Below, piece after piece: positions 2,242 to 58,657 of a stretch of DNA of 64,000 bases. Source of the DNA: Nitrospinaceae bacterium (GTDB lineage Bacteria > Nitrospinota > Nitrospinia > Nitrospinales > Nitrospinaceae); assembly GCA_965237905.1 (NCBI GenBank), contig OZ250172.1:1792001-1856000 (forward strand), in the 5' to 3' direction. Position numbers and translations under genes: made by a program. Below the pieces are notes generated by a model that was given only the letters and a program-made list of their open reading frames with translations, made no database searches and was not told where the DNA came from. The stretch's first letter is position 1. Each line of letters starts with the position of its first letter.

Positions 2242-2366
2242 AGAATCAGTATAACAGGCAGGAAAACAAATTCGAGACAAGAGGCTCAACGAGTCGGCAA
2301 TTCAGCCTTTTACAATGGAAAAGAATGGCCTGGCGAAATCAGCTCTGGACCTTGTGCGGCTTCTGC

Positions 2367-2389
2367 CAAGCTCGCCCTCCGCGAAGGAG
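2367..2389. repeat. partial copy of the dispersed ~94-bp element (CAAGCTCGCCCTCCGCGAAGGAG)
   Basis: 22/23 identical to 4315-4337; lies 3 nt beyond the stop of the gene ending at 2393. Confidence 0.7.
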
Positions 2390-4257: not shown

Positions 4258-4452
4258 GTGGAGTGCCTCCACACGCAGTTTGAATGAAACTCAAGCAACT
4301 TTGCCCGTCGTGAGCAAGCTCGCCCTCCGCGTAGGAGGCGGAGAACCTCCGCAGGTAATATACACTTTAATGGCGGAGATAAAGGCTGGTTTGCTCAACC
4401 AAGTGTCAGCCAATTTCGCCCTCCGCGTAGGAGCTCGCCCTCTGCGGAAGAG
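4258..4452. repeat. degenerate array of the dispersed element abutting the tmRNA 3' end (units of about 80 and 96 bp plus a 20-bp end fragment)
   Basis: TCGCCCTCYGCG motif three times (ending 4337, 4433, 4452); hairpins GTGGA-GTGCC-TCCAC (4258) and GCGGA-GAACC-TCCGC (4338); 4318-4370 matches the 56.6-kb array unit at 43/53 without gaps. Confidence 0.7.
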
Positions 4453-4814
4453 TGGTGGAGGCGGGGGGAATCGAACCCCCGTCCGAAAGTCGTCAACGCA
4501 AAGCGTCTACATGCTTATTTCGCTCTTTGGGTCTCGTTCGAGCTACTCCAGCGAACAGGATTTCACCCGAACCAGTCTCTCAATCACCGCATACCCCCGA
4601 GACACTGGGTACGAAGCTCGTTCGCTAAAGTGACGTTCTTCTAAACCTCACGAACAAAAGAATAGAGAACGGTAACCAAGTAAAACGAGTTTACGCGGCT
4701 ACTGCATAGTCATAATCATTGGCGATTATGGTTTGTGCCGTTTTTTTACGGGCCAACGGCATCCCGTGCATGCAACTTTGATCTCAATACTCCCGTCGAA
4801 TCCAGATCGCCCCC
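4453..4814 (-). ncRNA. ssrA: tmRNA (one-piece), tag peptide ANDYDYAVAA*
   Basis: 5' GGGGGCGATCTGGATTCGAC; 3' GGGGGTTCGATTCCCCCCGCCTCCACCA; tag reading frame 4723-4691; 362 nt. Confidence 0.97.
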
Positions 4815-7751: not shown

Positions 7752-7860
7752 CCCCTCCTCAGTCCTCCCCTTGGTAAGGGGAGGAGATATTAGGTCCAGC
7801 GTTACGCTGGCTCACCTTAATCCGTCACCCTGTGGGTGCTCCCCATGAGGGGAGAGGAGA
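7752..7860. repeat. composite REP-like palindromes inside the ABC operon
   Basis: TCCTCCCCTT-GGT-AAGGGGAGGA; GGTCCAGCGTTACGCTGG; CTCACCTTAATCC...CTCCCCATGAGGGGAGAGGAGA (inverse copy at 31560-31598). Confidence 0.7.
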
Positions 7861-7885
7861 ATATTAGCTCCGGGCCTTGCCCGGC

Positions 7886-8710
7886 TCATCCTGTCGGCGA
7901 TGTTTCGTTGGCAGAAGGAATCACCGCCGCCTGGCCGAGGTCCCATTGCTGATGCAATCGTTCCACCGTGCCATTGGCCAACAGGGTTTTCAGTGCCTTG
8001 TCGAGGGCTTGTAGTAAAGCCGGATTGTCCTTGCGTACGGCGATACCGTAATATTCGTTCGTCAGGATTTCTCCCACCATCTTGATTTTGTCGAACACCG
8101 GTTTGTCCTTGTTTTTGTAATACAACGTTCCGGTGCTCTCACCCAGCACCGCGTCGAGTTCTCCATTGATCAAATCCTGCACGGCGTGCCCATACGATTC
8201 ATAACCCACGTTGCGGATGGCGGGATGATCCTTCAGTAAAAAATAAGCGGTCGTCCCGCGTTGCGCACCCACTATCATATTTTTGTTTTGCAGGTCGTCC
8301 AGCGTAGCTACCCCTTGCGTTTTTCTGAGCACGACGATAGCCAGGCCGCTTTTCAGGTAAGGCGTGCTGAACCCCATTTTCTTTTGGCGCTCCTCCAGAA
8401 TAGTGATGGAGCTGATGGCGGCATCGTACTTTCCGGTGGTCAGTCCGCCCAAGAGACCCGCCCACTCCACGTTGACCATTTCCAGTTCGAGACCAGCCTC
8501 TTTGGCGATGGCTTCCATCAAGGCCCAGTCGAATCCGTCGATCTGATTCTGGTCGTTCATAAACGACATGGGAACCAGAGTGGCATCGGTTGCGACTCTT
8601 ATTTTTTTGGGAACGCTCCCGGAATCCGGACCGCAGGCTGGAAATAATCCTGGCAGAAGAATCAGGAATAATAAAAACAATACAATGGAATGTGGTTGGG
8701 TTCGAGACAT
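7886..8710 (-). CDS. amino-acid ABC transporter substrate-binding lipoprotein (family 3)
   Basis: Signal peptide ending in Cys (FPAC); GFD, YDAAISSITILEER and YGIAVRK. Confidence 0.92.
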   Translation of the reverse strand: MSRTQPHSIVLFLLFLILLPGLFPACGPDSGSVPKKIRVATDATLVPMSFMNDQNQIDGFDWALMEAIAKEAGLELEMVNVEWAGLLGGLTTGKYDAAISSITILEERQKKMGFSTPYLKSGLAIVVLRKTQGVATLDDLQNKNMIVGAQRGTTAYFLLKDHPAIRNVGYESYGHAVQDLINGELDAVLGESTGTLYYKNKDKPVFDKIKMVGEILTNEYYGIAVRKDNPALLQALDKALKTLLANGTVERLHQQWDLGQAAVIPSANETSPTG

Positions 8711-14363: not shown

Positions 14364-16394
14364 TCAAGAACGAGGCATAGTCTTTAACGGGAAGGCGAGC
14401 ATACGGGTTGGAGTTGTTTGCAAATTAAATAACTGAATGAACGCGGCGAGGCACTGCGGATCATATTTGCCTGCCTTGGTTTTCTTTTGTAATTCCTTAA
14501 TGGCGGTTTGATAATTTAAAGCCACCTGATTCCTACTGTTGCTGGTCAGGACATCAAAATCGTTGGCGATACTCAATATGCGCGAACCCAGAGGAATTTC
14601 CCCTCCCTTTAATTTATCCGGATAACCCGACCCATCATAATGTTCGTGATGGCTCTTCACATAATTGTGGAGTATTGTCGAAGTGTACCCCAACTGTTTG
14701 ATCATCCGGGTGCTTTCTATTGAATGTTGGTGGACCAAGGCCTGCTCGTATTTGGACAAGGGCCGGTTGGTGCCCCGGATTTCGTGCGGGATAATGATCT
14801 TGCCCAAATCATGCAAATATCCGGCGATCAAAAGTTCTTCTTTTTCCCTGTGGGATAAACCCAGTTTTTCAGCCAGCGCGTATGAAAGAAGCGCCACTGT
14901 TTTGCCGTGACCCAGGGTGCCATCGACCGCCTCGGACGCATGAATCAGTTCCATCGGTAATTTGATATTGGCAGTGACCGAAGCATACTTGTCAAAGAAG
15001 TCCCGGGGAATTTTGTTGCGATCCATAAAAGGATCCTTTAGTCCGAGGACCCGGTAAATCGACACACGCTCCTTTTTCCCGCGGATAGCTATTTTTTCGT
15101 ACTCATCCTGCTTTTTCTCTGCCTCAACGTAGGCCTCGCGGGCTTCTACATGGTTCGGGTCGATTTTCAATATTTTTTGAAAAACTTCTATAGCGGCGCT
15201 GGCAGCCCGCTTTTTAAAGAAGGCTTGCCCCAGAGCGTACAGCATCTGCAGGTCGTTGGGATTTTGATTCAGAAGATCTTCGAGGGATCGAACTTCAGCT
15301 TCCACAATCTTGTCCGCTTCCCGTTTGCCATAAACGGAACGAATCCGGCTGACGTGAAAAAATTGCTGAACAATCATATAAGTATTGTGGTCGATGTACA
15401 CTTCGCCGGGCTCGCATAACTCTTCAAGGCGGGCGGCCAGGTTCGCGGTATTGCCGATACAGGAGTAACTTTTGCGCTTCGACCCCAAAAGACCCACCAC
15501 GGACGCCCCAGTGGCAATGCCCACCCGCATTTTCCATTGAGGATGGGTTTTCTGCATTCTTTCCTGCATGGTGAGGCCCGCCAGAACTGCCAGAACCGCA
15601 TGATTTTTATATTTAACAGGTGCTCCAAATTCCACCATGATCCCGTCGCCAATGTACTTGTCGATATGGCCGTAGCACTGGGTGATACAATCCTCCATTT
15701 CACCGAGATAAGCATTCAATTCGTTGATCACCTGTTCCGGCGGATTCTGCTCGGAATAAACGGTAAAGTCCTTGAGATCGGTAAACAAAACGGAGATCCG
15801 CCGTTTTTCGTTGCGCAGTTTGCCTTCGATCATCAACCGTGCTACTTTGGAGTCCATTACAGAGAATAAAGCTTCTTCCACACGGGTTTTTAAGGATTCG
15901 ACATTTCCCTGCGACCGCTCTAGTTCCTGAGTCCTTTCAGAAACCCTTGTTTCCAGTTGGGAGCTGTAATCATTCAACCGTTTGTTGCTGATATCCAACA
16001 GTTGTTTTTCCTGTGCCAGCTCTTCCCGCAGTTTGTCGGTGAAGCGGAGTTTTTCCTTCAACCCTCCGATAATCCATCCCGCTAGAATCAGGAATCCGGC
16101 CCAAATCGTGAGGTGGAAGTACAGGTGAAATTTTTCTTCAAGGGCGTAGTCGTAATAGTAGTTGTCCAAATCGGCCAGCACAAACACCCAGACCATGAGA
16201 ACGGTTAAAAACGCACCCAGCACCGCTGTGCGCCGTCCCAGGTAATAACCCGCGAGCATAATCGGGAGATAGTAAAAATTGAGGAATGCAATTTTGGAAT
16301 AAACGAAGAAATTGATCAGAACAACGCTGATCAAAATCGTGAATATGAAGTGACTTTCGAAATGGTCGAATACGTACCGCTTGAGCTTTTCCAT
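14364..16394 (-). CDS. membrane-bound class III nucleotide cyclase with TPR insert and C-terminal HD-GYP domain
   Basis: LFTDLKDFT, DKYIGDG and IGNTANLAARLE; TPR YALGQAFF...KIDPNH; HDLGK and HHEHYDGSGYP. Confidence 0.88.
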   Translation of the reverse strand: MEKLKRYVFDHFESHFIFTILISVVLINFFVYSKIAFLNFYYLPIMLAGYYLGRRTAVLGAFLTVLMVWVFVLADLDNYYYDYALEEKFHLYFHLTIWAGFLILAGWIIGGLKEKLRFTDKLREELAQEKQLLDISNKRLNDYSSQLETRVSERTQELERSQGNVESLKTRVEEALFSVMDSKVARLMIEGKLRNEKRRISVLFTDLKDFTVYSEQNPPEQVINELNAYLGEMEDCITQCYGHIDKYIGDGIMVEFGAPVKYKNHAVLAVLAGLTMQERMQKTHPQWKMRVGIATGASVVGLLGSKRKSYSCIGNTANLAARLEELCEPGEVYIDHNTYMIVQQFFHVSRIRSVYGKREADKIVEAEVRSLEDLLNQNPNDLQMLYALGQAFFKKRAASAAIEVFQKILKIDPNHVEAREAYVEAEKKQDEYEKIAIRGKKERVSIYRVLGLKDPFMDRNKIPRDFFDKYASVTANIKLPMELIHASEAVDGTLGHGKTVALLSYALAEKLGLSHREKEELLIAGYLHDLGKIIIPHEIRGTNRPLSKYEQALVHQHSIESTRMIKQLGYTSTILHNYVKSHHEHYDGSGYPDKLKGGEIPLGSRILSIANDFDVLTSNSRNQVALNYQTAIKELQKKTKAGKYDPQCLAAFIQLFNLQTTPTRMLAFPLKTMPRS

Positions 16395-18019: not shown

Positions 18020-18108
18020 CCAGGGTGACGCTGGACCTGAATTCTGAATTGTGCAGGGTGAGCATCGAGAGCCGTCATCGGTCAACCTGCTCCCCCTCCG
18101 GGCAGGAG
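18020..18108. repeat. diverged single copy of the ~94-bp element
   Basis: 18029-18108 aligns without gaps to 56614-56693 (CGCTRGACCTRAATTCTGAATTG...CCTCCGGGSAGGAG). Confidence 0.7.
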
Positions 18109-18130: not shown

Positions 18131-18550
18131 TCATTCTCCCGATAGGTGTAGAACCACCTGCCGGCGATGGGGAGCCGTCCGGTGCTCGAACAGGTAGATA
18201 TCCTGCCAGGTACCGAGGGTGAGACTCCCGTTGACCAGCGGTACGCAAATCTGCGTCTGGGTGAGGGCCGAACGGATGTGCGCTGGCATGTCATCGTCCC
18301 CTTCTGCGGAGTGCCGGTATTGCGGGTCACCGTCCGGCACCATCCGATTCAAAAACGCGTTCAGATCGGTCAGCACATCCGGGTCAGCATTCTCCTGAAT
18401 CACCAGCGAAGCCGAAGTGTGCCGGATGAACACCGTGAGCAGTCCCGTGGTCATCCCCTGCGCGTGCGCCCAGGAGACGATAGCATCATTGATGTTGTGC
18501 AGTCCCCGCGCCTTGGTTTTGATTGATATCTCGTGCGTCGCCTGTTTCAT
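18131..18550 (-). CDS. yjbQ: YjbQ / UPF0047 family protein
   Basis: HTSASLVIQENADPDV, EGDDDMPAHI and LGTWQ. Confidence 0.93.
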   Translation of the reverse strand: MKQATHEISIKTKARGLHNINDAIVSWAHAQGMTTGLLTVFIRHTSASLVIQENADPDVLTDLNAFLNRMVPDGDPQYRHSAEGDDDMPAHIRSALTQTQICVPLVNGSLTLGTWQDIYLFEHRTAPHRRQVVLHLSGE

Positions 18551-21446: not shown

Positions 21447-22667
21447 TCATTCGGGGTGAATGTCGGTGAATTCTGGAGGTTCCGTCGGGTTACTTCTTCT
21501 TTCTTTATTTTTTTCTGGAAGCATAATGATAAACGAGGTGCCTTTGCCAGGTTGGCTGACCACGTGAATGGATCCACCATGACGATCCACGATTTTTTTG
21601 CAGATGGCGAGTCCCATACCCGTGCCTTCAAATTGAGTGCCGCTACTGGTTCTTTCAAAGGGATGAAAGACCAGGTTGATCTGGTGGTCCTCAATGCCGA
21701 TGCCGTTGTCCTTGACTATGATTTCCCAGAACCCGTCACGCAACGGGCGGCTGGTGATCTCCACTACCGGTGAGACGCCTTTCTGATGATATTTGAGGGC
21801 GTTGCTGATCAAGTTTTGAACCATCTGTCGCATCTGTGTGGGGTCCGCTTCCAACGTTGGTAATTTTTTGTCGATTTTCAATTGGGCCTTCGAATGGGTG
21901 ATCCGGGCTTCCAGATCATCAATCACTTCCAGAGTCAGTGTGTGCAGGTTCACGGGCTGGAATGACTGGGCACTGGAAGAAACGCTGGCCAGTTTTAACA
22001 GAGCCTCAATAAAGCCCTGCATTCGACGTGCAGATTTTCGCAGGCGATCCAGGTAATCCCGGTTTTTGGTTTCCTCTTTAGGAACATGTTCTTCCAGCCG
22101 GTCGCCGAACATTACGATCTTGCGTAAAGGTTCCTGCAGATCATGCGAGGCGACGGCGGCAAAATCCATCAGCTCCTGGTTGCTTCGTTTTAACTCCTGG
22201 GTTCTTTCCTCGACCCGTTCTTCCAGACGGATGCTGTAGTTTCGCAACTGGCGGTTGGAGATGCTTAACAATTCGCGTTCGTGGTCCAGATCTTCACGGA
22301 GCCGTTCGGTGTGTTTCAACTCGAGCTGCAATTTTTCGGACAAGGTGCCGATCAGCCATGCCGCCAGGATCAGAAATCCTCCCCATACTGTAAGATTGAG
22401 GTTGGCCTGGAAGGAACTGCTGACGGTGTAATATTCCTTTTGGTCCGCCAGGATGAATATCCAGACGATAAGGATGGCAAAAAACGCACCCAGGACGGCA
22501 AACCGCTTGCCGATGTAGTATCCCGCCAGCACGATCAGAAGGTAAAAGAAATCCAGAAAGGCGATTTTGGTGTAGACAAAGTAATTGACGAAAATCGCTC
22601 CCGCCAATATGGAAAGGACAATGGCATCTTGGCCATGTTTCAGTAGATATTTTTTCAGAGAGTCCAC
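21447..22667 (-). CDS. membrane sensor histidine kinase (HisKA + HATPase)
   Basis: ASHDLQEPLRKI, NLISNALKY, DNGIGI and GTGMGLAIC; N-terminal TM module shared with two other genes. Confidence 0.92.
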   Translation of the reverse strand: MDSLKKYLLKHGQDAIVLSILAGAIFVNYFVYTKIAFLDFFYLLIVLAGYYIGKRFAVLGAFFAILIVWIFILADQKEYYTVSSSFQANLNLTVWGGFLILAAWLIGTLSEKLQLELKHTERLREDLDHERELLSISNRQLRNYSIRLEERVEERTQELKRSNQELMDFAAVASHDLQEPLRKIVMFGDRLEEHVPKEETKNRDYLDRLRKSARRMQGFIEALLKLASVSSSAQSFQPVNLHTLTLEVIDDLEARITHSKAQLKIDKKLPTLEADPTQMRQMVQNLISNALKYHQKGVSPVVEITSRPLRDGFWEIIVKDNGIGIEDHQINLVFHPFERTSSGTQFEGTGMGLAICKKIVDRHGGSIHVVSQPGKGTSFIIMLPEKNKERRSNPTEPPEFTDIHPE

Positions 22668-22889: not shown

Positions 22890-23360
22890 TCAGGTTCTTA
22901 AGACGCGCTTTAACTCTTCTTCCAATTGGAGGTTACGTTCATTCAAGCGTTGGTAGGATAATTCCAGTTCCTTGCGGAGCCGGTTGCTTTCTTCCAGCTC
23001 ATGCTTTCTCTTTTCCGATAGAGTACCGACCAGCCAGGCGGCCAAAATCAAAAACCCTCCCCACACGGTTAGATCCAGATGGGTATTCAATGGGTTGTCG
23101 GGCTCGAGATAAGGGTTTTCGTTCACCAATACAAAAGCCCAAACCATGATGATGGCAAAAAAAGCTCCTAGAATGGCCAGCCGCTTGCCCACGTAGTAAC
23201 CGCCCAGCACGATCAAAAGATAGAACACATCCAGGAAAGCGACTTTGGAATAGATGAAGTAATGAATTGCCGCCGCACTGAGTAACGTGAGGAGGATGAT
23301 AATATCTTCCCAGTGTTTTTCTGTGTGATTTTCAGATTCATCCGGGATGGGATTCGGCAT
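22890..23360 (-). CDS. membrane module plus coiled coil, no output domain
   Basis: Homologous to the N-termini of the kinase and the cyclase (KVAFLDVFYLLIVLGGYY, LTVWGGFLILAAWLVGTLSEK). Confidence 0.8.
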   Translation of the reverse strand: MPNPIPDESENHTEKHWEDIIILLTLLSAAAIHYFIYSKVAFLDVFYLLIVLGGYYVGKRLAILGAFFAIIMVWAFVLVNENPYLEPDNPLNTHLDLTVWGGFLILAAWLVGTLSEKRKHELEESNRLRKELELSYQRLNERNLQLEEELKRVLRT

Positions 23361-24839: not shown

Positions 24840-24926
24840 GGAGATTTAGTATACCGGCCTACGCGATTGGGGGCAAGATATTGAAAGATAGGTTATTCAG
24901 TGGGCAACCAGCGTGACGCTCGCCAG

Positions 24927-25021
24927 GCAACGCCCGGAGGAAATTTTATAGGGTGTCAGGGCCAAATTGAAGGGTGACTTTCGCCAGTAGAGGTTTTAAA
25001 TTACCTGCGGAGGTACTCCGC
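24927..25021 (-). repeat. inverted diverged copy of the ~94-bp element
   Basis: Minus strand reads GCGGAGTACCTCCGCAGGTAATTTAAAAC, with CCTCCGGG about 80 nt further on, as in the array unit. Confidence 0.6.
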
Positions 25022-27035: not shown

Positions 27036-28205
27036 ATGGTAAATAAACCAAAGGCATCCCGAAAACCCAAAGCTGGACCCAAGAAAAGCCCAAAAGCTGC
27101 CCCTATATCAGCCTCAAGAAAATATTTAAGTCAAACGGATGTGCCTGGTGTCTCTTTAGAAAAAGCATTAAAAGTTTCACAGGCTTTAAATGACAATTTT
27201 GCGAAACATCCAACTAAACCCTTAATGATAGCTCAAGCTTTAGATATGTCTCCCACCTCGGGGCCCTTTAGGCAACTATGTGGTGCCGCTATAGCCTATG
27301 GTTTAACCGAAGGAGGCTATAATGCGGACCAAATTTCTCTAACTAACCTAGGCACTAGAATTGTTACTCCAACTGAAGAGGGTGATGATTTGATTGCTAA
27401 AAGGGAGGCCGTTCTAAAGCCGCGAGTTTTAAATGAATTTCTTAAACAATATGATGGTTCTCCTTTGCCAAAAGAAAATATTGCTTTAAATGTTTTAGAG
27501 GAATTTGGTGTTCCGAGAGATAAAACTGATAAAACATACCAATTAATTTTAGAAAGCGCCGAAGCAGTAAAAATAATTACTGAAATAAAGGGAAAGCAAT
27601 ATGTAAATTTAGAGTCTTCTGGAATTTCAACAGCTGAGGACGAGCAGGAAGAGCTTGCTGAAAGTGAAACCGCACAAACGCTTGAGAATCCTCCTGTAGA
27701 GGAAGTCATTAAGGATGAAAATGAAGAAACCATCTCTCAAGATAAACAAAAAAACTTAAAAAGAAAAAAACGAGTGTTTATTACCCATGGAAAGAAAAAG
27801 CATTTTATTGAACCAATTAAAAAGCTGTTAGATTTTGGTGAAATGGAACCCGTGGTTTCTACAGAAAAACAGTCCGTATCTCAACCTGTTCCCGATAAGG
27901 TAATCAATGATATGAGAAGTTGCGGAGCGGCCATAGTTCATGTTGATACGGATTCGATCGGAAAAAAAGAAGACGAAAAAATTAAAATTGTTAATTCCAA
28001 TGTTTTGATTGAGATCGGTGCCGCCATGGCTCTTTATGGTAAAAGATTTATTTTATTAGTAGAAGATGGTGTGGATTTGCCATCCAACCTTCAGGGACTA
28101 TACGAAGTAAGGTATGAAGGGGAAAATTTGGATAGTAATGCTACGATTAAATTACTCGAGGCAATTAAAGATATTAAAAATCATCCATTGCCAGAGGAAA
28201 AATAG
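27036..28205 (+). CDS. TIR-domain protein (CAP12/Pycsar-type TIR) with N-terminal helical, wHTH-like region
   Basis: VFITHG, NVLIEIG and LPSNLQG; clearly AT-richer than its flanks. Confidence 0.82.
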   Translation: MVNKPKASRKPKAGPKKSPKAAPISASRKYLSQTDVPGVSLEKALKVSQALNDNFAKHPTKPLMIAQALDMSPTSGPFRQLCGAAIAYGLTEGGYNADQISLTNLGTRIVTPTEEGDDLIAKREAVLKPRVLNEFLKQYDGSPLPKENIALNVLEEFGVPRDKTDKTYQLILESAEAVKIITEIKGKQYVNLESSGISTAEDEQEELAESETAQTLENPPVEEVIKDENEETISQDKQKNLKRKKRVFITHGKKKHFIEPIKKLLDFGEMEPVVSTEKQSVSQPVPDKVINDMRSCGAAIVHVDTDSIGKKEDEKIKIVNSNVLIEIGAAMALYGKRFILLVEDGVDLPSNLQGLYEVRYEGENLDSNATIKLLEAIKDIKNHPLPEEK

Positions 28206-31432: not shown

Positions 31433-31664
31433 TTTACCGCAGAGGGCGCAGAGTCCGCAGAGAAATCTTTAAGCAGACAGGTCCTCCCAAACAGGTGATA
31501 ACCATCAACGTCTTGGAGGAACGAATAACGGGATGACAGGATGCACAGGATTTCAAAAATCTCCTCTCCCCTCATGGGGAGAGGATTAAGGTGAGGGGTG
31601 GAGTTTTGTAGTTGCTCGATTTATCGAGCATTTTTGAAGGGAGCCCTATAAATGAGGTAACTAC
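31433..31664. repeat. cluster of four different short repeat or palindrome types
   Basis: CGCAGAG x3; ACRGGAT x3; CTCTCCCC-TCAT-GGGGAGAG; GTAG...CTAC inverted doublet at 31608-31664. Confidence 0.7.
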
Positions 31665-33634: not shown

Positions 33635-33680
33635 ATTTGTTCTCGAGCGCTACGGGGTCCAGCGTCACGCAGGTGGAAGG

Positions 33681-34760
33681 TTATTTCCCTGTCAGTTTCA
33701 CTAGGTCAGGATGGAAATAGAAATGATTTTTCCCCATCCAGAAGTCCTTGAGCAATTGGGCATCTCTGAGTTCGGCCAAATGCCGGCTTGCGGTTTGATG
33801 ATGGATGCCTAGCGCACGCCCAAATTTAGCAGGATTCGTTACCAGATTGGAAAATAGGTGGTTCGTGACTTCCTCCGCTTTCATTTTGCTGTGGTTGTCT
33901 CTAATGGCTTTTTTTAGTTCCTTGTAGACGAGCATCATCTCAAGCAGTTTATGTTCTGTCTTAAGGGCTTGGAGTTCAAAACCCTCCAACATAAATAATA
34001 TAAAATGTTCCCAATTCCTGTTGCGGGTGACATCCAGTAAATTCTTATAATAATCTGAGCGGCGTTTGTTTAAAAATCCGCTGATGTAAAGTACGGGATG
34101 CTCTAGAAGCCCTTCTTGAACCAGTTGCAATACCAGAAGGATTCGGCCGGTTCTGCCGTTGCCATCCATGAAGGGGTGAATGGCTTCAAACTGATAGTGG
34201 GCCAGCGCGCACCGGATGAGAGGGTCAAGGGGAGGGGTCGCGTCTGTTGCGTTCACAAAGTTTTCCCAATTCTGTAACAGCTGGTTGATTTCTGTTGCTG
34301 GAGGGGGTGTATAAATGACTTCCTCTGTCCTTTGGTTCATGATGGCGTTCTGTTGTTTCCGGTAACCCGACGAACTGGGAATCAGTTTTTTGTGGATACC
34401 CTGGATCAACCGTGTAGATATGGAGTATTGCTTAAGGTTTGCCATCCCCCAATACATAGCTTCCCGGTATCTCAAAACTTCCTTATCGGGACCTTTGACC
34501 TCCGATTCTGGCAAAACCTGACCTTCCAAAACACTTTCCACCGTCGTGACAATGTCTTCGATACGGGAACTCTCCACAGATTCCTTGGTCATTGCCAATG
34601 ACATTAAAAGCATCGGATTGGGAACACTGGCGCAATATCCATTTAATTCTCCAGTTTGCCGACTTGCTTTAACCAAAGCTTTGAGGATGGAAGCGGTTTC
34701 AAGGTCCTCCCTGGGGGGCAGAGGGGGTACTTCAAAAGGTTCAGCTGAATTGTAGGGCAT
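33681..34760 (-). CDS. Fic family protein (N-terminal Fic_N, C-terminal wHTH-like)
   Basis: Canonical HPFMDGNGRTGR; inhibitory-type SSRIE motif. Confidence 0.92.
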   Translation of the reverse strand: MPYNSAEPFEVPPLPPREDLETASILKALVKASRQTGELNGYCASVPNPMLLMSLAMTKESVESSRIEDIVTTVESVLEGQVLPESEVKGPDKEVLRYREAMYWGMANLKQYSISTRLIQGIHKKLIPSSSGYRKQQNAIMNQRTEEVIYTPPPATEINQLLQNWENFVNATDATPPLDPLIRCALAHYQFEAIHPFMDGNGRTGRILLVLQLVQEGLLEHPVLYISGFLNKRRSDYYKNLLDVTRNRNWEHFILFMLEGFELQALKTEHKLLEMMLVYKELKKAIRDNHSKMKAEEVTNHLFSNLVTNPAKFGRALGIHHQTASRHLAELRDAQLLKDFWMGKNHFYFHPDLVKLTGK

Positions 34761-56595: not shown

Positions 56596-56631
56596 CAAAC
56601 AGATACGGCGGTCCGCTAGACCTAAATTCTG

Positions 56632-57070
56632 AATTGCGCTCAGAGATTCTCGGTTACCGTTACCGGTTAACCCGTTCCTCCTCCGGGGAGGAGGCGGCGA
56701 ACCGCCGCAGGTAATTAAAAACTTCAAATTGCGCTCAGAGATTCTCGGTTACCGTTACCGGTTAACCCGTTCCCCCTCCGGGGAGGAGGCGGCGAACCGC
56801 CGCAGGTAATTAAAACTTCAAATTGCGCTCAGAGATTCTCGGTTACCGTTACCGGTTAACCCGTCCCCCCTCCGGGGAGGAGGCGGCGAACCGCCGCAGG
56901 TAATTAAAACTTCAAATTGCGCTCAGGGATTCCCGGTTACCGTTACCGGTTAGCCAGTTCCCCCTCCGGGGAGGAGGCGGCGAACCGCCGCAGGTAATTA
57001 AAACTTCAAATTGCGCTCAGGGATTCTCGGTTACCGTTACCGGTTAGCCAGTTCCCCCTCCGGGGAGGAG
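56632..57070. repeat. tandem array of 4.7 near-identical 94-bp non-coding units
   Basis: Units start at 56632, 56727, 56821, 56915 and 57009; each full unit has hairpins CCYCCTC-CGGG-GAGGAGG and GCGGC-GAACC-GCCGC. Confidence 0.97.
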
Positions 57071-58657
57071 TCAGGCCAGAGTGGTTTTGTTTTTGGGAAC
57101 GGCGCTCAGTTTGTAGAGGATGCTGTCGATCAACGCCTGCCAGCTGGCTTCGATGATATCCTCGGAAACGCCGACGGTACCCCATTTGGAATCGTGGTCG
57201 CCAGATTCCACCAGCACGCGGATTTTCGCCGTGGTGCCGCTTTTCTCGTCGAGGATGCGGACCTTGTAGTCGAACAGGCTCACCTCTTCCAGTTCCGGAT
57301 AGAACTTGGTCAGCGCTTTGCGGATGGCTTTGTCGAGGGCGTTGACGGGACCGTGCCCTTCGGCGGCGGTCACCTCCTGCACTCCGTTGACGCGGATTTT
57401 CACCGAGGCCTCCGCGAGCGGCGCTTCGTCCTCCTGCCGTTTCTCTACGATCACGCGGAACCCGATAAACTCGAAATGCTGTTCCCGCTCGCCCATCGCG
57501 TCGCGCATCAGCAGTTCAAACGAGGCTTCGGCGCCTTCGTACTGGTAGCCGAGTTTTTCAGATTCCTTCAGCTGGTTCAGCACTTCCTGGATTTTGGGAT
57601 CCTTCGAGTCGATGTCCATGCCGAATTCCTTGGCTTTTTGAAGGATACTGCTTTTACCCGACAAGTCGGACACCAGGATGCGTGTCTGGTTACCCACGAT
57701 TGAAGGGTCGACGTGCTCATAGGTCTCGCGATTTTTCTGCATGGCGCTGACGTGGATGCCGCCCTTGTGCGCGAACGCGCTTTTCCCGACATAAGGTTGA
57801 TGGTTCCAGTGCGCCTTGTTGGCTAGCTCGTCCACGAATGCGGATAAATTTTTCAGTCCTGTCATTTGCTCGTTGGAGATGCAGTCCATTCCCATTTTCA
57901 ATTTCAGATTGGGAATGACGGAAACCAGATTGCAGTTGCCGCACCGCTCGCCGTAACCGTTGATGGTGCCCTGCACCTGTCCGGCACCGGCTTCGACTGC
58001 GGTCAAAGCGTTGGCAACGCCCATTTCAGAATCGTTGTGTGTATGAATGCCGAGCGGGGTCTTGCAGGCTTTGCGTACCTCTTCGAAAATGGTTTTGATT
58101 TCCCAGGGCATCGTGCCACCGTTGGTGTCGCACAGCACCAGCCAGTCGGCCCCCGCCGATTCGGCTTCTTTCAATACTTTGAGAGCGTATTCCGGGTTAT
58201 TCTTATAGCCGTCAAAAAAATGCTCGGCGTCGAACATTACTTCCTTGACATATTTTTTCAGGAAGGACAGGCTGTCGGATACCATGCGCAGATTTTCATC
58301 GAGATTGGTGGACAGGGCTTCGCTCACATGCATGTCCCAGCTCTTCCCGAAGATGGTGACCACCGGGGTTTCCGCTTCCAGCAGACGTTTCAGGTTCGGG
58401 TCATTTTCTGTCTTGTGTTTGGGCGAACGGGTACTGCCGAACGCAACCAGCTTTCCTTGCTGAAAGGATTCCTTTTTGATCTTCTCGAAAAATTCGATGT
58501 CCTTGGGATTCGATCCCGGCCAGCCGCCTTCGATGTAGTGGATGCCGTTATCGTCCAGCTTGTGAGCGATGCGGATTTTATCCTCTACGGTGAAGGCGAT
58601 TTCTTCCGCCTGAGAACCGTCTCGTAAGGTTGTGTCGTATATTTTAATCGTTTTCAT
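57071..58657 (-). CDS. cimA: citramalate synthase
   Basis: [32 protein letters not shown] and HKGGIH. Confidence 0.92.

Follow-up and report, generated by a model that had tools for sequence, protein, structure and literature searches.

The window, by which we mean the whole 64-kb stretch of DNA that was analysed, carries a dispersed hairpin repeat at the sites listed in Table 1, and among these sites are the 3' ends of the tmRNA gene and of an isopropylmalate/citramalate-synthase-family gene. The first-pass annotation had named homologues of an array at 56.6 kb at positions 4258-4452, 18029-18108, 24927-25021 and 2367-2389. All four sites and the array itself, in which 56632-57070 comprises 4.7 copies of a 94-bp unit, are present, but the list lacked the hairpins at 7796-7810, 7870-7884 and 33659-33673. 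The contacts with the tmRNA CCA (4452/4453) and with the stop codon at 57070/57071, as well as the distances of 3 and 22 nt from two other minus-strand stops, were found as described. The gene ending at 57071 had been labelled cimA; Pfam backs the isopropylmalate/citramalate synthase family but nothing narrower.

In the array beside the tmRNA gene, a hairpin at 4258-4272 is followed by a short-form linker, the hairpins 4325-4337 and 4338-4352, a second linker and the hairpins 4421-4433 and 4440-4452. The array at 56605..57070 begins with a degenerate hairpin and its last hairpin adjoins the stop. The hairpin 7870-7884 lies 1 nt from a stop at 7886, and a TATAAT hexamer directly follows the hairpin 25007-25021, 56 nt upstream of the uvrC start. 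Apart from the repeat, the ORF at 27036-28205, directly downstream of uvrC, has a CAP12/Pycsar-type TIR domain and is a possible anti-phage effector. A three-copy 148-nt direct repeat (16165-16312, 22438-22585 and 23116-23263; 67-74% identity) probably corresponds to paralogous membrane domains.

Table 1. Repeat copies and docked genes in the 64-kb window.
Feature	Position	Strand	Remarks
Degenerate copy	2340..2389		Intact terminal hairpin 2377-2389, 3 nt from minus-strand stop at 2393
Two-unit array	4258..4452		Last hairpin adjoins tmRNA CCA
tmRNA gene	4453..4814	minus	RF00023, 201.8 bits; 3' CCA is the docking site
Two family hairpins, 7796-7810 and 7870-7884	7796..7884		Repeat of another family between them
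Single full unit, type-A linker	18020..18108		Hairpin 18096-18108, 22 nt from minus-strand stop at 18131
Unit, type-B linker	24908..25021		Two imperfect hairpins 24908-24937 and hairpin 25007-25021
Lone imperfect family hairpin	33659..33673		7 nt from minus-strand stop at 33681
Tandem array, 4.7 x 94-bp units, 97% matches	56605..57070		Between convergent genes
Isopropylmalate/citramalate-synthase-family gene	57071..58657	minus	Pfam; stop codon is the docking site

Unit structure and hairpin types

The unit measures about 95-100 nt and consists of a linker with a GC-rich mini-hairpin at either end, both of them facing outwards. The focal genome (G000) is a single contig of 3.09 Mb, and its gene coordinates were obtained with our own codon-model caller (2794 CDS, 85% coding), so a few gene ends may be wrong or missing. 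It contains 258 hairpins, mostly intergenic, of five interchangeable types. Four of these have a 6-bp stem and a 3-nt loop (CCAGCG/CGCTGG, CCGGGC/GCCCGG, GCGGMG/CKCCGC and CCGGCG/CGCCGG), and the fifth, H1, has a variable stem of 4-7 bp and a loop of 4-5 nt. The stem first read as 5 bp with a 5-nt loop is actually of the 6-bp, 3-nt kind (GCGGCG/CGCCGC, GCGGAG/CTCCGC, GTGGAG/CTCCAC). The base changes taken as compensatory do conserve the structure, but they are mostly swaps among discrete hairpin types and not stepwise changes.

The five hairpin sequences interchange on one linker, and the two ends of a unit carry different hairpins. Two long linker types, A and B, which look homologous, and one short form were distinguished; the spacing of linker A is nearly fixed (31 nt in 64 of 89 copies and 32-33 nt in another 19). 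Units are found in either orientation and are arranged in tandem, back to back or as mosaics, which are often intermixed with other repeat families. No long end-to-end hairpin was found across the unit.

Copy number, distribution and turnover

Iterated nhmmer searches (E<=1e-3) gave 95 core copies in the focal genome and none in the reversed genome, and about 160 clusters were counted once lone hairpins were included. The earlier view of a dispersed, structure-conserving and mobile-looking repeat is supported. By blastn, the long form was present in 10 of 10 genus relatives, with a weak match in one of 30 other genomes. The short form was found in 39 of 120 genomes of the phylum, all of them inside the order, and three of these showed bursts, with 17-39 copies each. 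Among the pattern matches listed for public genomes, 78 of 80 were titled Nitrospinaceae, Nitrospina, Nitrospinota or Nitrospirae/Nitrospirota. One exact pattern had no match in viral contigs, and no match was obtained in phage and plasmid collections.

In two high-copy genomes (20 regions plus the first-listed loci) the copies lie mostly inside or beside other palindromic repeats and not at stops, and docking is therefore no constant of the family. Units inserted in the centre or at the edge of other palindromic repeats were observed at L240-L247 of G052 and L228-L239 of G032. In low-copy genomes across the order, 7 of 30 first-listed short-form loci were at tRNA or tmRNA ends and 2 of 30 at a stop.

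Within 50 kb of the origin beside dnaA, a region with about 4% of the intergenic DNA, 29 of the 95 cores were located. Origin clustering was rejected as a hallmark of the docking family, since control repeats are likewise enriched there. No bias between leading and lagging strands was detected (52:43, p=0.41). Phage head genes (portal-like, prohead protease and capsid) that carry family copies were observed 5-10 kb from dnaA (C1:1729961-1733454); they are possibly an old prophage or a gene-transfer-agent-like cluster.

Turnover of the element was evident at orthologous sites. When 23 docked sites in relatives were matched by eye to the focal genome, a hairpin was seen at the same end in 15, a remnant in two and an empty end in five, and one site aligned poorly. 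At 8 of the 10 genes involved the hairpin was swapped while the junction stayed at the stop, and one gene end carried four different hairpins in four genomes. In addition, stubs of the previous hairpin were found between the stop and the current one, and copies of the tRNA or tmRNA end, variable in length (5-14 nt), between units. One family copy lies in frame in the linker region of dnaX, the clamp-loader tau/gamma gene (C1:1702826-1703034). In G002, a Y1 transposase element bounded by terminal inverted repeats (TIRs) is inserted in a family copy (L012:1360-1430), and the counterpart in the focal genome, at about 442.4 kb, is uninterrupted. No clean pair of empty and filled sites close enough to reveal a primary insertion was found.

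Docking at gene 3' ends

The proposed tie to 3' ends held across the genome, as 37 of 190 outer hairpins were within 1 nt of the 3' end of a gene or RNA, compared with 0.53% of intergenic positions. Counting only hairpins that face a 3' end, 37 of 98 were docked, against about 1.1-1.7% expected. The distance was 0 in 27 cases, -1 in five and +1 in five, and no case was found at +2. Four other hairpin repeat classes of the same genome were docked in only 1 of 189 cases, palindromic control repeats being counted from both sides. In a motif-free scan, 30 hairpins started at stop offset 0, while the offsets from 2 to 40 had 2-16 starts (mean 7). The signal was seen again outside the focal genome, with 14 of 155 docked in loci of other genomes.

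The docked stop codons (15 TAA, 12 TGA and 6 TAG) mirror the usage of the genome and, as a consequence, the element is usually not the source of the stop; in two exceptions, the final codons have given way to the hairpin, which provides it. Non-docked junctions followed TAA, TGA or TAG in 6 of 153 cases against a background of 4.9%. Docking tracks real stops and not the stop triplet. Core genes, such as gyrA, tRNAs and tmRNA, are among those docked. The idea that the element also abuts promoters or ribosome-binding sites was discarded, as counts out of 88 on the 5' side did not differ significantly from expectation (ribosome-binding site 3 against 1.4%, -35 box 6 against 5.1%, -10 box 5 against 3.7%). 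The docking is real.

RNA genes predicted by ARAGORN were docked more often (7 of 46) than coding sequences (33 of 2794; Fisher p=2e-6). These seven, four detected by patterns and three added by eye, are all four tRNA-Ser genes of the focal genome, the tmRNA, tRNA-Leu(cag) and tRNA-Ala(ggc). Inspection by eye of nine genomes of the genus showed that, in 30 of 30 tRNA-Ser gene-genome pairs recovered, family sequence begins no more than 3 nt from the CCA or discriminator, with a hairpin that usually differs from genome to genome; in five genomes of other genera, 2-3 of 17 tRNA-Ser genes were docked. Some tRNA junctions lie at the discriminator base and not after CCA. In eight genomes, the tmRNA was docked in five, 9 nt away from the element in one, next to a degenerate copy in one and empty in one (G005). 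The tRNA-Ser genes lie near the origin, where family copies are densest, but proximity alone is insufficient to account for their docking because only 3 of 97 coding sequences of the same region are docked.

Loss of the encoded CCA could not be attributed to the element, since tRNA-Ser genes without CCA also exist in genera poor in it. Two PolyA_pol-family nucleotidyltransferase genes (C1:2517328 and 2938235; open frames of 880 and 457 aa) would be compatible with post-transcriptional addition of CCA. The usual discriminator of serine tRNAs is G; in tRNA-Ser(cga) (C1:1707843-1707929) it is T in six of eight genomes of the genus and G in two. At L036 (G008), the first ~10 nt of tRNA-Ser(cga) are present twice with an element in between, a case of duplication at a tRNA 5' end.

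One explanation of docking, the main rival of the reading preferred below, is that the repeats spread as DNA and are selected at these positions at the RNA level, where the hairpin would protect mRNA 3' ends or mark the precursors of tRNA and tmRNA for processing or termination. The confinement of docking to 3' ends, the preference for RNA genes and the docking of all 30 serine tRNA genes recovered in the genus are in agreement with it. The short form 4258-4345 folds as RNA on the strand of the tmRNA transcript (z=-3.1), and some short forms terminate in a hairpin plus T-run. Moreover, a single long-range pair of linker A (-29/+4) covaries, being C-G in 112 and T-A in 29 of 154 sequences (Fisher p 8e-8 in the focal genome and 8e-14 in relatives). 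This covariation may come partly from shared descent, as the nearest neighbour is also T-A for 20 of the 29 T-A copies. REPs are also mostly near 3' ends and were proposed to act as RNA in the part of PMC3733652 used here.

However, five other copies or strands folded as RNA with z from -1.45 to +0.93, and the linker lacks a consensus fold and is no more stably folded than shuffled sequences, either as RNA or as DNA (mean z about 0). Stem mismatches (9 G-T against 11 A-C) did not show a G-U bias on the transcript strand. Orthologous ends manage without the element at 5 of the 23 sites compared and at the tmRNA of G005, and the other hairpin repeats of the genome are undocked. In contigs of four metatranscriptome runs, the tmRNA of mixed organisms was covered and the element almost not at all, which does not bear on expression or transcript ends either way. 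The loops were studied by a motif-free scan of the H1 ends, on which the claim rests because our first H1 pattern itself imposed G...A loops. The best stems close on G...A in 49 of 90 cases, and the 4-nt loops comprise 26 GNYA against 3 GNRA. Loops of this type fit DNA mini-hairpins better than RNA GNRA loops, according to the section of PMC13037366 on which we drew, and the stable motif is on the strand opposite the docked transcript; the loop evidence leans towards single-stranded DNA. Selection at the RNA level is on balance rather unlikely as the cause of docking. The idea of an RNA family in its own right was not sustained, given the linker without consensus fold, the stems without G-U bias and the copies lost or swapped between species.

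Known repeat systems, candidate movers and explanation

Rfam identified only the tmRNA in the window, besides sub-threshold P36 matches (19-27 bits against 36), and the family has no match there. It is nevertheless less unfamiliar than first thought, because it is built in the manner of REP dimers and BIMEs. Architecture and turnover were compared with those given in portions of PMC3733652, PMC3333891, PMC8266576 and PMC6006769. As in the REP dimers, REPINs and BIMEs of the first three, high-copy extragenic stem-loop palindromes that are short and GC-rich, with 6-bp stems and 3-nt loops, form inverted dimers tens of bases apart, with a linker. They gather in mosaic and tandem clusters, are lineage-restricted and mostly intergenic near 3' ends, have occasional in-frame copies in DNA-replication genes and are hit by other IS.

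However, the terminal GTAG of REPs is not conserved, as it was found at 1 inner and 2 outer feet of 258 hairpins (GYRG at 2 inner and 22 outer feet), and the equivalent position reads TTGG, TTTG, TTAC, TTAT, TTCC or TTAG. The order-wide short form has GTAG, but base-paired inside the terminal stem. Neither was a cognate RAYT flanked by the repeats found for the Nitrospinales family. REPs can outlast their RAYT. Whereas GTAG termini often supply a TAG stop in the part of PMC3733652 compared, most docked stops here belong to the gene itself and are not part of the repeat, and the excerpts of the REP literature compared describe no repeat placed exactly at tRNA-Ser and tmRNA 3' ends. The repeat works like a REP/BIME system but is not classed as one, because both the GTAG terminus and the cognate RAYT fail.

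Other repeats were also considered. CGTC repeats share the palindromic structure, the intergenic location near 3' ends and, in the portion of PMC3733652 used, the lack of a dedicated transposase, but the CGTC terminus is missing here (0 inner and 2 outer feet of 258). The TMECO, PIT and BoxC triplex repeats are alike in their purine/pyrimidine-rich hairpin ends, local instability and lack of a mobile gene, and TMECO is reported to cluster near the origin in E. coli K-12; unlike the present family, they do not tend to lie at a set distance from ORFs (PMC4666352, in part). A triplex-like control family of the focal genome was docked in 1 of 36 cases. The tRNA-linked repeats of E. coli, such as tyrT, are tandem units behind a tRNA gene with a short copy of the tRNA 3' end, whereas the Nitrospinales units are scattered across about 160 loci, most of which are at protein genes. 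The terminal inverted repeats, fixed target-site duplication and partner IS of a MITE were not found, since the end hairpins differ, duplications are variable or absent and there is no fixed trinucleotide outside the junctions. No description of the family was found in the open-access literature.

The linked HUH/RAYT, GIY-YIG or DUF559 nuclease that had been suggested was searched for and none was found. PF01797 (Y1_Tnp) had no match in the focal genome. Matches, all bounded by TIRs, were obtained in 3 of 20 family relatives, and others, either TIR-bounded or flanked by other repeats, in 2 of 5 further genomes; several of the relatives are incomplete. The Y1 genes of the relatives correspond to the TIR-bounded subclass described, in the part of the literature compared, as lacking REPs. 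A RAYT-like gene of the high-copy genome G032 (L227:1405-1941) is flanked by its own, unrelated palindromic repeats. The four matches of a six-frame HUH-motif scan of the focal genome were implausible, and Y2_Tnp gave none there but also none in control genomes, so that this negative is uninformative. Two DUF559 genes were rejected as partners because other repeat families flank them, and a stand-alone GIY-YIG gene was also rejected: a family hairpin lies upstream in the focal genome, but of the five relatives displayed a single one has a hairpin there, which is degenerate, and four have none nearby. Twelve genes have family members on either side, and these genes are mostly housekeeping or of unknown function. 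The ORFs in 114 loci of other genomes included no recurrent partner in what is a low-power test, the largest cluster comprising 5 loci. At least three other palindromic repeat families were observed, two of them flanking DUF559 genes (C1:2708215-2708613, C1:2957452-2957760, window 7839-7865 and 31555-31581); they are origin-enriched and undocked, and a GxxExxY-motif gene lies near 590.9 kb.

The position at gene 3' ends, the near-fixed length, the covarying pair with a bulge-like base and the G|Y junctions on one strand would also suit integron attC-like sites at the ends of gene cassettes. However, no integron integrase (TIGR02249) scored over the cut-off in the focal genome, although the controls likewise gave none, and the docking of core genes, the lack of a long end-to-end hairpin and the mosaics with both orientations and back-to-back units do not agree with attC. 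This reading is highly improbable and already largely refuted.

Insertion could instead be guided by an RNA boundary, through a transcription- or translation-coupled or RNA-templated step behind stops and tRNA or tmRNA ends. The spike at distance 0 that follows real stops and not the triplet, the short forms of low-copy genomes that are often first at RNA ends or a stop, and the end duplications of variable length are in favour. Nevertheless, no reverse transcriptase was found in the focal genome, many copies are far from 3' ends, inside dnaX or amid other palindromic repeats, and some junctions lie at the discriminator base. We regard such guidance as improbable. Equally doubtful is the wider proposal of a transposase-free repeat that would take its insertion point from RNA boundaries and not from DNA sequence, and which is now the 3' trailer of every serine tRNA of the genus.

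The reading that we prefer, at a probability of roughly 0.5, is that of mobile DNA that is non-autonomous and REP/REPIN-like; its junctions would be rebuilt again and again at the outer foot of a hairpin already in place, until selection halts them at the last essential base. From what was observed directly (architecture, copy number, base-exact docking and, at orthologous sites, the presence or absence of the element and the exchange of its hairpins) we infer that the units would move or recombine as single-stranded DNA. New ones would enter beside existing hairpins and so give mosaic and tandem arrays. For comparison, TnpA-REP cuts BIMEs as single strands and joins them again, with little site specificity, which leads to variability and tandem copies (PMC3333891). 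Junctions would be imprecise by a few bases, and events that cut into a gene would be purged unless the gene end was rebuilt; old, often-reworked sites would hence converge on distance 0. The docked state probably also spread among tRNA-Ser, tRNA-Ala and tmRNA by recombination between their acceptor ends, which are alike. The enzyme may belong to the repair or replication machinery of the host, or may be a transposase, either lost or merely visiting.

Against this rebuilding stand the failure to find a mover, the lack of replication-strand bias and the absence of 5' docking. Erosion to any boundary should give some docking at 5' sides, though promoter edges are fuzzy, and so sharp a distance spike is surprising for a random ratchet, unless it combines old sites with young ones. 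Slightly imprecise rebuilding, together with selection on gene ends and recombination between tRNA ends, has about an even chance of being the right account of distance 0, of which it is the most economical.

The family bears on how REP-like repeats spread, especially without a RAYT, and on why they gather at gene 3' ends. The signal is sharp and countable (distance 0 at genuine stops, and 30 of 30 serine tRNA ends with hairpins that keep changing), which makes a ratchet, RNA selection and targeted insertion separable. The family also rewrites protein C-termini and the DnaX linker in relatives of marine nitrite oxidisers.
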